Source: Candidatus Kryptoniota bacterium (GTDB lineage Bacteria > Bacteroidota > Ignavibacteria > Kryptoniales > JAKASW01). Taken from it: DNA of 64,000 nucleotides. The notes under the pieces are model-generated. The model was not told where the DNA came from. It searched no databases and saw only the letters and a program-made list of their open reading frames with translations. Below, in pieces: positions 3,404-63,946 of this stretch. Position 1 is the first letter of the stretch, and each line of letters begins with the position of its first letter. The position numbers and the translations under genes were made by a program. The DNA is taken from assembly GCA_046706745.1 (NCBI GenBank), contig JBJKPC010000076.1, forward strand, positions 194,091 through 258,090. The letters run 5' to 3'.

Positions 3404-3875
3404 AACTCGTTCTCCTCCCGCATTTTGTGCTAAGGGCAAACTGGTCCGCCGGGTTGTCCCGACATGCAGGATCCCTTCGTCGGCCCGCAGACTTGTTATG
3501 AACCATAGGATTCCTGAAAAATCCCTCAAATGCCGTGCCTACAATTAATTGGTAATCCGGTCAAATTAGGGCGGCAGTGTCAGATTCTTCCTCGCATAAG
3601 TGCGACAACTTGCCACACTTGTTCCATTGTCACGCGGGATCTCCCCACTTCCGTTCCGAACAGGTTTCGGGGAAATTTTCCCACATCAGCTTTCATCTTG
3701 TCGTGAATTTTTGGTCCGCTTTGACGAAATTAGAAAACATCCGGTGGAGGCAGGATCGTGGAGGCTTCTTCGCTTTCACAAGCCTTACGTACCCCGAAGA
3801 TGCAACGGAAGAGCACCGCTCCCTGACCTCAAGACCCGACCGTTTGCAGTTTCAAACGAAGGAAGATACCCAGGA

Positions 3876-5285
3876 ATGACTTATCTAGTTGACACACACG
3901 CACATCTCAATCACGAGAAATTCCCCGACCCCGGCGACACTATCGAAAGAGCGGCTAACGCCGGAATCAAATACGTCGTCGTACCCGGATGGGATATTCC
4001 CTCGAGCGAGAGGGCCATCGAGCTCTCCGAGAAATACGAGAACGTTTTTGCCGCCATCGGCATCCACCCGCACGAGGCTTCTCACGCCGACACAGCGGCA
4101 TTGGAAAAGATTGAAGACATGTCGTCTCATGATAGGGTTGTCGCAATCGGGGAGATTGGCCTCGATTATCATTATAACCTCTCGCCCCCGGAAATTCAGA
4201 AGAAGATATTCGAATCACAAATCGAAATCGCAAAATCGGTCAAGCTCCCGGTCTCCATCCATAATCGCGAATCAGATGTCGACCTGATGGAAATCCTGGA
4301 GAGACAGGTTGAAACCGGCTGGATCCTGCCCCGTCGGTTCGATTATCAGCTCAACCTCCAGCCGAGAGGGGTACTTCACAGTTTCAATTCGACTTACGAA
4401 ATTGCGTTCAGAGCGATCCGGCTCGGCTTCTATCTCGGCATCAGCGGCATGGTGACCTTCGGAAAATCGAAGGAGGCTGGGCTGCAGAAGGTCGTAAAAA
4501 CCATCGAACCTGAGCACTTCCTCGTCGAAACCGACGCGCCTTATCTTGCGCCTGTCCCTTACCGCGGACAAACAAATGAACCGGCGTACACCTCGCAAAT
4601 AGTCGAGAAAATTTCCTCGCTCCAGGATCTGACACCGGAAGATATTCGCCGGATAACTTCATACAACGCGTACAAACTCTTCGGCGTCGGGGAAAAGCCG
4701 CAGCCCAAGATAGCTTACCAGATCCGGAATTCGTTGTACCTCAACCTGACCATACGCTGTGACGCCGACTGTATTTTCTGCGACCGGAAAGGCGAGGCGA
4801 TGGTAAAGGGGCATAACCTTCATATTGCAAAAGAGCCGTCGGTAGAAGATCTAATAAAAGAAATAGGCGATCCGAATAAGTACAATGAAATTGTTTTCTG
4901 CGGGTACGGTGAACCCACGATCAGGTTGGATGTCCTGAAAGAAGTTGCCGTTTATGTCAAAGAAAAAGGGGGCAAGACCCGGCTTGATACCGACGGACAC
5001 GGCAACGTTATCAACCATCGCGACATTCTTCCGGAGTTGAAGGGCCTGATCGATTCCGTTTCGATCAGCCTGAACTCGACTGATCCAGACGAGTACGCGA
5101 AACTGATGGGAACACCGAACGGCAAACAATGGGAATCGATGATTGAATTCGCAAAAGGGGCCAAGAATTATATCCCTAAGGTTTATATGAGCGTAGTAGG
5201 CATAGAAGGACTTGATGTCGAATCTGCAAAAGACCTCGTGGAAAGGAAAATCGGAGCGGAGTTTAGATTCAGGCCGCTCTTCTGA
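3876..5285 (+). CDS. TatD-family metal-dependent hydrolase fused to a TatD-associated radical SAM domain
   Basis: The TatD part reads MTYLVDTHAHLNHEKF...AIGEIGLDY...VSIHNRES...LVETDAPYL. The C-terminal ~200 aa carry CDADCIFC (CX3CX2C, nt 4758-4781) and VFCGYGEPT. The start was set at ATG 3876 next to the DTHAHL motif. Confidence 0.8.
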   Translation: MTYLVDTHAHLNHEKFPDPGDTIERAANAGIKYVVVPGWDIPSSERAIELSEKYENVFAAIGIHPHEASHADTAALEKIEDMSSHDRVVAIGEIGLDYHYNLSPPEIQKKIFESQIEIAKSVKLPVSIHNRESDVDLMEILERQVETGWILPRRFDYQLNLQPRGVLHSFNSTYEIAFRAIRLGFYLGISGMVTFGKSKEAGLQKVVKTIEPEHFLVETDAPYLAPVPYRGQTNEPAYTSQIVEKISSLQDLTPEDIRRITSYNAYKLFGVGEKPQPKIAYQIRNSLYLNLTIRCDADCIFCDRKGEAMVKGHNLHIAKEPSVEDLIKEIGDPNKYNEIVFCGYGEPTIRLDVLKEVAVYVKEKGGKTRLDTDGHGNVINHRDILPELKGLIDSVSISLNSTDPDEYAKLMGTPNGKQWESMIEFAKGAKNYIPKVYMSVVGIEGLDVESAKDLVERKIGAEFRFRPLF

Positions 5286-61493: not shown

Positions 61494-61922
61494 ATGGGAC
61501 GGAAGTTTTGGCTCGGGTTCCTGGTCGTCTTCGTGGTCCTCGAAATCCTCATGAATGTGGTGGACGGCTGGATACTCGCGGGGGCGTACTTGTCTGTAAA
61601 AGTCTGGCGGCCCGACATGATGTCGCTCATGTGGGTTTATCATGTCCTGACCGTTATCGAGGCATTCTTCTTCACGCTGGTGTTCTCAAAGGGGTACGAG
61701 AGCAAAGGATTGATGGAAGGTCTCCGGTATGGTTTCTACATCGGGGTTTGGCTGAGCTCGGGGATGGCATACGGCACATATGCGATGATACAGATCCCGT
61801 ATTCGCTTGCGCTGCAGTGGTTCATCTACGGAATCATCGAGTACATGATAGCCGGTCTGGTACTCGCGGCCGTATATAAGGGAGCGAAACCGAAGGAGGT
61901 TGCTGCTGCGGCCCAGGGATGA
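61494..61922 (+). CDS. Four-TM membrane protein, function unknown
   Basis: 142 aa, four hydrophobic segments, preceded by GGAGGAAAAATG. Its stop codon abuts the left repeat module. Confidence 0.55.
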   Translation: MGRKFWLGFLVVFVVLEILMNVVDGWILAGAYLSVKVWRPDMMSLMWVYHVLTVIEAFFFTLVFSKGYESKGLMEGLRYGFYIGVWLSSGMAYGTYAMIQIPYSLALQWFIYGIIEYMIAGLVLAAVYKGAKPKEVAAAAQG

Positions 61923-61923
61923 T

Positions 61924-62276
61924 CGGGCTGAAGCCCGGCTTGGGGTGGGAATTTGTTGCCCCGAACTGAAGTTCGGGGCAACAGCTGAAGTTCAGGACAA
62001 CAGCTGAAGTTCCGGGCAATAGCCAAAGTCCGAGGCAACAGCTGAAGTTCCGGGGCAACAGCTGAAGTTCGGGGCAACAGCTGAAGTTCAGGACAACAGC
62101 TGAAGTTCCGGGCAATAGCCAAAGTCCGAGGCAACAGCTGAAGTTCCGGGCAACAGCTGAAGTTCAGGACAACAGCTGAAGTTCCGGGGCAATAGCCGAA
62201 GTCCGAGGCAACAGCTGAGGTTCAGGACAACAGCTGAAATTCCGGGCAATAACCAAGGTCCGAGGCAACAACAGAC
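61924..62276 (+). repeat. Left repeat module: hairpin leader plus 16 head-to-tail units of a 19-20-nt repeat
   Basis: CGGGC-TGAA-GCCCG (61924-61938). Hairpin TTGCCCCGAAC-TGAA-GTTCGGGGCAA (61956-61981). Units GTTCnGGrCAACAGCTGAA counted by hand from 61971 to 62276, with higher-order pattern A B C D E A B C D E B C D B C D. Confidence 0.95.
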
Positions 62277-62320
62277 TCACAGAAAGAAGAATCTCTTTGT
62301 AAAACGGAAGGAGGGGCGGA

Positions 62321-62728
62321 ATGCCTTACGTCAAAATTTGGATACACCTGAACTGGACGACATACCGAAGAGAACGGTTAATAACTCCAGAGCTGAAAAA
62401 GCAGCTACTACCACACATCGTCGAAAATGCCAAGCTGAAGAGCATTTATATCGACACCTTGAACTGTATCGAGGACCATATACATTTGCTTATCTCTCTC
62501 AAAGCAAATCAGAGCGTCAGCGCGGTTATGCAGCTGATAAAGGGCGAATCGTCTCACTGGGTAAACCAGCTCGGCTTGCTGCACAGGAAGTTCGGATGGC
62601 AAGATGATTTCTATGGCGAGTCAGTAAGTGAATCCGCCCTGGGCAGTGTTAGGCGATATATAGAGGGACAAGAAGAGCATCACCGCAGGAAGAGCTACGA
62701 GGAAGAATGCTCGGAATCTCATTTCTAG
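62321..62728 (+). CDS. REP-associated tyrosine transposase (RAYT) / IS200-like Y1 HUH protein
   Basis: 135 aa: VKIWIHLNWTT, HUH motif EDHIHLLISL, KGESSHWVN, FGWQDDFYGESVS, and the catalytic Tyr context VRRYIEGQEEHH. RBS GGAAGGAGGGG lies upstream. Confidence 0.85.
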   Translation: MPYVKIWIHLNWTTYRRERLITPELKKQLLPHIVENAKLKSIYIDTLNCIEDHIHLLISLKANQSVSAVMQLIKGESSHWVNQLGLLHRKFGWQDDFYGESVSESALGSVRRYIEGQEEHHRRKSYEEECSESHF

Positions 62729-62746
62729 ATATCCATGGACTCTCGC

Positions 62747-63002
62747 CGGGCTAAAGTCCGGCTTGGGGTGGGAATTTGTTGCCCCGAACTGAAGTTCGGG
62801 GCAACAGCTAATGTTCGGGGCAACAACCGGAGTTCGGGGCAACAGCTAATGTTCGGGACAACAGCTAGAGTTCAGGACAACAGCTAGAGTTCAGGGCAAC
62901 AGCTAGAGTTCAGGACAACAGCTAGAGTTCAGGACAACAGCTAGAGTTCAGGACAACAGCTAGCCTCCGGGGCAACAGCCGGAGGTCAGGGCAACAATTG
63001 AC
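62747..63002 (+). repeat. Right repeat module: same leader plus 11 head-to-tail units of a strict 19-nt repeat
   Basis: Hairpin at 62779-62804 identical to the left one. Units GTTCrGGrCAACAGCTAnn run from 62794; four units are identical (GTTCAGGACAACAGCTAGA). A terminal inverted repeat CCTCCGG-N8-CCGGAGG (62964-62985) is present. The last unit touches the trxB stop. Confidence 0.95.
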
Positions 63003-63946
63003 TAGTCGCCTCCCTTGTGATACAGGGTCTCAAGATATTTCTCGGCATCTATCGCTGCCATGCAACCGGTACCGGCCGCCGTCACCGCCTGCCGGTATTT
63101 CTTGTCCGCGACATCTCCTGCGGCAAAGACCCCCGACACACTTGTCTCTGTAGATCCGGGCTTCGTAACTAGGTAGCCGACGCTGTCGGTCTCCAGCTGC
63201 CCCTTGAATATTGACGTGTTGGGCCGGTGCCCGATCGCAATGAACAGGCCCTGACAACTCATTTCTGATTTTTCGCCGGTCTTCACATTCTTCAATATGA
63301 CGCCGCGAACTCTCTTCTCCTGCACACCAAGCACCTCATCCACCACCGAGTCCCATACAAACTTAATCTTCGGATTGGCGAACGCGCGCTCCTGCATTAT
63401 CTTCGATGCGCGGAGCGAATCCCTCCGGTGAACAATCGTAACTTTGCTTGCGAACTTTGTCAGGAAAGTAGCTTCCTCCATCGCGGTGTCGCCGCCTCCG
63501 ACAACCAGGACTTCCTGATCCTTGAAGAAGAAGCCGTCGCAGGTGGCACACGCGGATACACCGTATCCCATCAGCGCTTTCTCCGATTCAATCCCGAGAA
63601 GCCTTGCGGAAGCGCCGGTGGATATAATAATCGAGTCGGCAGTATACGTTTCACCTCCGCTCCTGAGCGTGAAGGGCTTCTTAGACAAGTCGACTTCGGA
63701 GACATCCTTGAAAAGTGTCTTCGTGCCGAACTTCTCGGCCTGCTTCTTCATTATATCCATCAGTTCCGGCCCCATAATGCCGTCCGGGAATCCGGGATAG
63801 TTTTCAACTTCTGTAGTTATTGTCAGCTGCCCGCCCGGCTGGCTCCCCTCGAAGAGAAGAGGCTCCAGGTTTGCGCGCCCCGTGTAAATGGCAGCGGTCA
63901 ACCCGGCCGGACCCGATCCTACTATGATGACTTTCCTGTGATTCAT
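63002..63946 (-). CDS. trxB: Thioredoxin-disulfide reductase
   Basis: [16 protein letters not shown], redox-active [29 protein letters not shown]. Confidence 0.95.

Follow-up and report, generated by a model that had tools for sequence, protein, structure and literature searches.

A solitary IS200-like Y1 nuclease gene bracketed by composite hairpin modules and half-hairpin arrays in a Candidatus Kryptoniota contig

A 64-kb stretch of one metagenome contig from a Candidatus Kryptoniota bacterium (hereafter the window; the rest of the source genome lies outside it) encodes a solitary Y1 HUH nuclease, TnpA, whose gene is bracketed by two composite hairpin modules in the same orientation, each running into a tandem array of units that repeat one arm of a hairpin. 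In our judgment there is an even chance that this locus is a resident (domesticated or immobilized) IS200-like element, made up of a single-copy nuclease of TnpA-Y1 subclass 1.2 and its modules, and that its arrays, once seeded by the enzyme, grew through slippage. Support for the identity of the locus is good; that the arrays had an enzymatic origin is what we infer. An earlier note on this DNA had recognized a solitary HUH/Y1 gene with cognate flanking hairpins, and this description is upheld by a match of the protein to the Pfam family Y1_Tnp and by matches of the flanks to a covariance model of the module, as detailed below.

The nuclease and its composite hairpin modules

Judged by its motifs, the 135-aa protein encoded by tnpA (62321-62728, + strand) belongs to the IS200-like TnpA-Y1 subclass 1.2. 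It scores 81.8 bits against Pfam Y1_Tnp (PF01797; cut-off 23), is marginal against the NCBIfam IS200 model (NF033573; 58.8 bits, cut-off 55), and falls below the cut-off of the NCBIfam model REP_Tyr_transpos (NF047646; 34 bits, cut-off 80). Its motifs comprise the HuH motif D52-H-I-H55, W93-Q94, and Y113-IEG-Q117-EE-H120-H121; H53, H55, W93, Q94, and the Y, Q, H, and H of the tyrosine motif are invariant in an alignment of 35 homologues. The signature described for subclass 1.2 is DH[IV]H, WQ, and Y-x3-Q-x2-HH (consensus YIKNQKEHH), accompanied by a conserved, subclass-specific C-terminal domain and a median length of 148 aa, and the subclass has, according to the same study, no repetitive extragenic palindromes (REPs) or end hairpins (Quentin et al., 2018; PMC6006769). 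The sequence DHIHLL and the tyrosine motif VRRYIEGQEEHH are present in the protein as the earlier note had described them, and yet the label that it attached to them, that of a REP-associated tyrosine transposase (RAYT), does not hold, given the low REP_Tyr_transpos score and a tyrosine motif of the form Y-x3-Q-x2-HH and not Y-x3-NP. Sequence and profile searches of the PDB matched the TnpA proteins of IS608, ISDra2, and IS200, and the RAYT of E. coli (4er8) went unmatched in the PDB search with the family sequence profile. By fold, the top 29 Foldseek matches in the PDB to an AlphaFold model of TnpA (pLDDT 87.4) are likewise ISDra2, IS608, and IS200 TnpA, with 4er8 at rank 30. The family is large, with >2,000 homologues at E <= 1e-5 and >577 confirmed metagenome loci.

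The covariance model, built from other loci without the window, has exactly two matches in the 64 kb with filters off, both on the + strand: the left module at 61919-61986 (48.3 bits, E 3e-10) and the right module at 62742-62809 (39.4 bits, E 6e-8). Since they are matched by a model to which they did not contribute, the modules of the window are genuine members of a family, for which the same model finds 281 matches in 83 loci. The left module contains a small hairpin, CGGGC-TGAA-GCCCG (61924-61937), a GGGAAT box (61947-61952), a large hairpin, TGTTGCCCCGAAC-TGAA-GTTCGGGGCAACA, with a 13-bp stem (61954-61983), and the tail CAACAGC. In the right module, the small hairpin reads GCCGGGC-TAAA-GTCCGGC (62745-62762), the GGGAAT box lies at 62770-62775, and the large hairpin (62777-62806) has the same sequence as on the left. 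The 52-bp perfect direct repeat that had been reported here (61935-61986 and 62758-62809, + strand) is exact over precisely that length, and the similarity of the two modules continues imperfectly upstream of it, into the small hairpin.

A comparison set of 83 homologous loci, with TnpA proteins 43-64% identical to that of the window, places these modules in a wider pattern. Nearly all loci carry perfect hairpins beside the gene, whose 4-nt loops read TGAA, TAAA, or the complementary TTCA or TTTA, and hairpin density across 84 loci falls from 5.4-5.6 per kb in the 100 bp flanking the gene on each side to 0.01-0.08 per kb beyond 1 kb. The nearest upstream loop is TTYA, and the nearest downstream loop TRAA, in 44 of 57 loci each. 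When 71 modules are aligned on the TRAA strand, they take the form GGCTAAAGCC (the small hairpin) - N22-25 - CCN6-TRAA-N6GG - CAATT, in which the small hairpin is of the type GGC-TRAA-GCC and the large hairpin, CCNNNNNN-TRAA-NNNNNNGG, has an 8-bp stem followed by the CAATT tag. The canonical locus is thus an inverted pair of modules that brackets the gene, with the small hairpins gene-proximal. In the window, the right module has the canonical position and orientation, and the left module has the downstream-type orientation despite its position upstream of tnpA, a minority arrangement in the family.

Both helices are marked by compensatory change. In the large stem, changes on both sides occur at 8 of 8 pairs, a figure to be read with the fact that this helix was selected for pairing when the module set was assembled; the small helix, which was not so selected, is paired in 87% of cases and has double changes at 4 of 5 pairs. 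Moreover, the CAATT tail is far better conserved than its complement across the stem, so that on the TTYA strand a conserved tag lies directly 5' of the stem (AATTG in the family, GTTG in the window). Guide tetranucleotides occupy this position 5' of the palindromes in IS200/IS605 ends, as does GTAG in REPs (PMC8266576).

That both modules of the window are oriented alike, as the earlier note had stated, is borne out by the covariance model. The view that such a bracket is an unusual architecture is not, because it is a minority state of a family whose norm is a REPtron-like inverted pair. Further, the ends of IS200/IS605 elements carry similar hairpins on one strand, and the direct arrangement is for this reason not exotic in itself. 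As an aside, the same TTCA/TTTA loops occur in the REPs of Haemophilus influenzae (GTAGGGTGGGCTT[c/t]AGCCCACC) and in a Thioalkalivibrio REP (PMC2817692), which hints at a loop preference common to distant Y1 branches.

It seems very improbable that the hairpins act at the RNA level, as stabilizers of untranslated regions, terminators, or regulators of tnpA and its convergent neighbors, with arrays that are neutral. The fixed distances of the modules from the gene (~48 nt from the start codon and ~30 nt from the stop codon), the frequent overlap of the small hairpin with the stop codon, and the fact that transcription of trxB would run into the right array and hairpin would all suit such a role. 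Against it, no T-tract terminators were found at the hairpins, and Rfam returned no family for the module (weak microRNA and small RNA matches being repeat artefacts). Additionally, intact gene-less dimers of the module lie away from any such gene, and the conservation of loop and tag is strand-symmetric (TTYA upstream, TRAA downstream), such that one mRNA would present two different loops. Intrinsic terminators and sigma-70 promoters were both considered and neither accounts for the hairpins.

In its motifs, its short core close to IS200 TnpA, its apparently low copy number (one tnpA in the 64 kb of the window), and its occurrence in Bacteroidetes-related phyla, the family resembles subclass 1.2 as previously defined (PMC6006769). 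Unlike in that description, nearly every locus here has a composite module at both gene ends, and many have polar arrays. Within the Y1 transposase superfamily, subclass 1.2 forms a large orphan branch with no known substrate or function, and it had been reported without cognate hairpins. The locus and its relatives provide a precise candidate substrate, consisting of two hairpins with a fixed loop, a tag, and defined spacing, and this opens the way to binding and cleavage assays.

Half-hairpin arrays and their polarity

The left array of the window (61967-62272, + strand) consists of 16 units of 19-20 nt, each formed by the loop TGAA, the 3' arm of the large hairpin, and GC, and the right array (62790-62998, + strand), which abuts the trxB stop codon, of 11 units of 19 nt; in-register parsing reproduced the unit counts of the earlier note. 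Tandem Repeats Finder delimits a 19-nt array at 61966-62249, on which periods of 96 and 134 nt are superimposed, and a second array at 62793-62996. Tandem amplification of one hairpin arm, likewise claimed before, is real and not a product of chance: the 13-mer GTTCGGGGCAACA, with <=2 mismatches, occurs 27 times in the window, always within 61954-62996, as compared to a mean of 1.4 and a maximum of 6 in shuffled controls. These are the largest of the arrays that share a hairpin arm, which elsewhere have 2-5.5 units. Folded as single-stranded DNA, the left array region has z-scores of -6.7 (+ strand) and -4.7 (- strand). The reading of the left array as coding sequence was rejected, its minus-strand open reading frames of 93-102 aa being a mechanical product of the 19-nt period.

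The order of units in the left array is A B C D E A B C D E' B C' D' B' C'' D'', with a higher-order period of ~96 nt, and the identity of units 1-4 with units 6-9 points to a recent block duplication. In the right array, four of the five central units are identical; the four identical consecutive units reported earlier exist as copies, but only three of them are consecutive (62904, 62923, and 62942), the fourth, at 62866, being set apart by a one-base variant. Loop positions in this array have diverged to TAAT, CGGA, and TAGA. Both arrays are most divergent in their distal units, a gradient compatible with growth at the hairpin end. Two further observations concern the interval between array and gene. 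From the end of the left array to the ATG (62273-62320) there are exactly 48 nt, the modal distance for the upstream hairpin end in the family, and the window and its relatives L017, L019, and L110 are without the small GGCTTTAGCC hairpin that is found ~20 nt before the start codon in most other loci.

An artefact of assembly was considered as the source of the arrays and rejected, the same architecture being present in many independent assemblies, with a caveat kept for exact unit counts. For the window itself, the left junction is confirmed by L001, a short-read contig obtained independently from the same organism, which breaks off within the left hairpin, as would be expected for a repeat; this contig was reached through a look-up of the membrane protein encoded upstream of tnpA, and exact-product look-ups of the window TnpA and TrxB gave no match. 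Arrays of this kind break short-read assemblies, as here, and consequently their frequency is probably underestimated and they may be under-reported.

Half-hairpin arrays are present in many other loci, with units of 12-35 nt that have one arm in common with the hairpin next to them; examples are L038 (16 nt x 3), L052 (18 nt x 4), and L062 (19 nt x 5 and x 3.5), as well as L094, L096, L105, L047, L053, L097, L110, and L100. Their placement was examined in a symmetric test of 176 hairpins that counted extra arm copies within 60 nt of the hairpin. Read on the TRAA strand, 34 hairpins from 24 loci are followed on their 3' side by additional 3'-arm copies, and only 3 hairpins are preceded on their 5' side by additional 5'-arm copies. 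The rule is valid for hairpins of both orientations inside single loci, indicating that polarity tracks the hairpin itself, irrespective of replication direction and gene position, and it also applies at a gene-less doublet (L100). The density of short-period arrays is ~3x higher in the 600 bp nearest the gene than at distances above 1 kb. Large short-unit arrays were also noticed 1.4-1.6 kb from tnpA homologues, in L032 (2632-2859, 21 nt x 11), L056 (2384-2595, 21/42 nt x 10), and L053 (2355-2591, 14 nt x 17); the unit in L032, TGTCCGAAACTGTTGTTTGCC, is similar to the window unit in reverse complement.

How a resident nuclease might produce such arrays can be outlined by analogy with better characterized enzymes. 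HUH nucleases form a 5'-phosphotyrosine link and leave a free 3'-OH, carry out strand transfer, and recombine substrates in vitro (PMC8266576). The window nuclease would recognize each module as folded single-stranded DNA, with the tag in guide position on the TTYA strand, and would cut twice, once in or next to the loop and once after the tag. Attack of the 3'-OH of one copy on the 5'-phosphotyrosine intermediate of the sister copy would then duplicate the segment formed by loop, distal arm, and tag, leaving a seed that is polar with respect to the hairpin. Seeded repeats could grow by replication slippage or unequal recombination, a step that would explain the 96-nt blocks on the left and the run of near-identical units on the right. 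The same-orientation bracket may reflect a copy of a downstream-type module that now sits upstream of the gene, with the left module recently homogenized with the right over 52 bp, and the resulting direct repeats would predispose the gene to deletion. Strict array polarity would in this way translate into a testable prediction of the positions at which the enzyme cuts and joins.

The principal rival accepts the same identity for the locus and differs in the origin of the arrays, which would be minisatellites generated by slippage or unequal crossover and kept one-sided by selection on spacing: insertions on the other side would disrupt the spacing of small hairpin, GGGAAT box, and large hairpin. 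We give this a little over half the credence of an enzymatic seed. In its favor, slippage or unequal exchange typically leaves higher-order blocks, like those of 96 nt here, and stretches of identical units; conservation within the module falls on the 5' side of the large hairpin (TRAA strand); and unit lengths (12-35 nt) and boundaries differ between loci. Slippage is, in contrast, hard pressed by a first duplication of 16-21 nt with no obvious microhomology at unit borders, by a 34-to-3 polarity that holds in both orientations relative to the gene and thus for both replication directions at the same locus, and by the concentration of arrays near the gene.

BIME-2 and other tandem REP clusters provide known cases in which units containing hairpins are amplified in tandem locally, whether next to a Y1 gene or at a distance from it (PMC2817692; PMC3733652). 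Units of that kind are found here in L017 (230 bp) and in L066 and L096 (191-353 bp); unlike BIME-2, the window and ~20 other loci repeat only the loop, one arm, and the tag (12-35 nt), on the same side of the hairpin. The tandem 230-bp unit of L017 lies downstream of its tnpA (3436-4518, 4.7 copies) and contains the hairpins GGCTAAAGCC, CCCCGACA-TnAA-TGTCGGGG, and TTGCCGCGAGC-TTCA-GCTCGCGGCAA. As compared to the 19-nt unit of the window, it shows that the amplified unit can be wholly different between close relatives. When the literature was searched on subclass 1.2, on arrays of half-hairpins, and on the sequence of the small hairpin, nothing beyond the 2018 classification and general papers on REPs was returned. 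Tandem REP clusters, brackets of REPtron type, and the protein subclass itself were already known, and the composite module of subclass 1.2, the half-hairpin arrays, and their strict polarity are new relative to the literature searched.

Residence, loss, and dispersal

The gene lies, as the earlier note had placed it, between a membrane-protein gene on the + strand (61494-61922) and a convergent trxB on the - strand (63002-63946). The former encodes 142 aa, has no Pfam family, and overlaps the start of the left module with its stop codon (61920-61922); its orthologues occupy the equivalent position in L017, L019, L107, L109, L110, and L111. The latter encodes a thioredoxin-disulfide reductase (TIGR01292, 423.7 bits), with orthologues in related loci that are 81-93% identical. 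In the window, L017, L019, and L110, tnpA lies between these same two genes. A second synteny group, with a different neighborhood, is made up of L039, L048, L049, L070, and L086, among which TnpA is 62-70% identical and the neighbors 45-77%.

Judging by trxB identity, the window is closest to L107 (93%) and L017 to L109 (95%), and both L107 and L109 are without tnpA. At the membrane-protein/trxB junction of these relatives, decayed modules mark the site. L107 (3938-4206) has kept the orthologous left module in decayed form, with TGAA loops mutated to CAAT and TAGA, the GGGAAT box lost, and 2-3 degenerate array units left, together with a decayed minus-strand module beside trxB; L109 has kept one weak module (18 bits). 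The outgroup, L111/L112 (Candidatus Kryptonia per source), has a clean empty site with a 47-bp spacer. It had been proposed that the direct repeats of the window permit loss of the segment between them, and L107, with its left module kept in decayed form and its tnpA gone, fits the proposal, the loss being what recombination between repeats such as those of the window would give. Taken together, the comparison agrees with a single gain in the distant past, a long period of residence, and two or more losses of the gene followed by decay of the conserved features of the modules.

Were the locus an ordinary mobile IS200/IS605 element, with end hairpins on one strand and a chance insertion between these genes, the class 1 TnpA (just above the NCBIfam IS200 cut-off), the like orientation of the window hairpins, the clean empty site of L111, and the incongruence of TnpA with trxB identities would follow readily. 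The resemblance extends to the fold, the catalytic residues, and the guide position 5' of the stem (IS608, ISDra2). We nevertheless consider this very unlikely. The same site is occupied in four genomes by TnpA proteins only 62-79% identical, and synteny across diverged genomes is conserved in the second lineage too. There is one copy of tnpA in the 64 kb, with no second copy or other sign of mobility, and no tnpB. The inverted norm of the family is unlike IS200/IS605, and the IS200 score of the protein is marginal. Moreover, the family is virtually absent from mobile replicons: 72,556 plasmids gave two weak matches at ~30% identity, and a search for the TnpA family in phages found none.

The single copy and vertical inheritance that characterize RAYTs are found here in the conserved position of the gene in two lineages, and a further candidate explanation is therefore a classical REP/RAYT system (REPtron), in which the hairpin would be a REP dispersed as REPIN-like doublets and mobilized by the nuclease and the arrays would be BIME-like clusters. 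The systems of E. coli (TnpA-REP), Pseudomonas, and Stenotrophomonas resemble the present family in their single-copy, vertically inherited Y1 gene, the inverted hairpin bracket, the tag 5' of the stem, and stems that co-vary with lineage. Gene-less inverted doublets are a further likeness. They lie 1-3 kb from the gene in some genomes (L056 1845-1982; L100 2809-2940 and 5804-5935; L087 19-155; L050 1080-1252), are intact, and pair a minus-strand module with a following plus-strand module, the gene between them being replaced by ~10 nt; by their layout they look like REPINs or miniature derivatives of the element. Whole-REP tandem reiteration, known from REP clusters (PMC3733652; PMC2817692) and seen in L017 as 230-bp units, and the loops shared with Haemophilus REPs also speak for this explanation.

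A REPtron is, on balance, an unlikely account of the window. The protein is of class 1 and not class 2, lacks the NP of the RAYT tyrosine motif, and fails the REP_Tyr_transpos cut-off; the tag is ATTG/GTTG, with GT[AG]G absent; a small hairpin and GGGAAT box are added to the large hairpin; and the units of the window are half-hairpins, not REPs. Dispersal is slight or lacking. In the window, searches by motif, by hairpin, and by covariance model (filters off) found no further copy of the module in the 62 kb of flanking sequence, both modules being direct with no inverted doublet of REPIN type, and hairpin density beyond 1 kb is ~0.04 per kb across loci. A scan of 185,579 species genomes (a set without the source genome) for the hairpin found 15 unrelated, single, terminator-like hairpins and one orthologous locus, L014, from the same organism as L019. 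The idea of a new REP class, raised by the earlier note, is not supported for this genome at the scale of the 64 kb, in which the hairpin is not dispersed.

Weight of the evidence and significance

Several points weigh against a resident element with enzyme-seeded arrays. First, the window TnpA shares 62-64% identity with the TnpA of its syntenic relatives, the pairs L019-L110 and L017-L110 being at 79% and 64%, and these identities (62-79%) are far below those of the neighbors (82-89% for the window, 82-95% overall) and incongruent with the trxB tree, which suggests fast evolution, or else replacement or re-insertion at the same site. Second, the window protein may be inactive because its C-terminus is seemingly truncated: it ends in EEECSESHF* (stop at 62728), and the tail conserved in the family, F-x-K-x-(Y/H)-G-(F/I/L), emerges only when the frame is shifted by two bases (FLDIHGLSPG*, 62690-62775; compare EEECRDFMKRHGI in L110). 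A frameshift near 62705-62715 has probably removed ~10 C-terminal residues, or else the assembly contains an indel. Third, cleavage sites and the active strand are extrapolated to subclass 1.2, unit boundaries vary among loci, and the L053 unit is without a loop. Fourth, insertions between the small and the large hairpin may be selected against, and the polarity could stem from this instead. Lastly, the exact unit counts (16 and 11) come from one metagenome assembly, and dispersal in the source genome is judged from the 64-kb window.

If the arrays are enzymatic footprints, as the favored explanation of a resident element would have it, they would reveal a domesticated HUH nuclease that is active at its own locus in nature. 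A broader proposal, which we advance tentatively and think doubtful, is that subclass 1.2 nucleases, with their TRAA-loop modules, make up a class of resident Y1 systems of their own, widespread in Ignavibacteria, Kryptoniota, and Bacteroidota-type bacteria and absent from the literature searched, whose arrays are footprints of repeated HUH cleavage and strand transfer at the sites of the enzyme itself. If this is true, the arrays would exemplify local amplification of sequence by a nuclease in nature and might also have given rise to the gene-less doublets. Apart from these subjects, one locus of the set (L034, 1594-1639) contains an Acido-Lenti-1 RNA (Rfam RF01687, 51 bits) 2.4 kb upstream of its tnpA homologue, which is probably unrelated.

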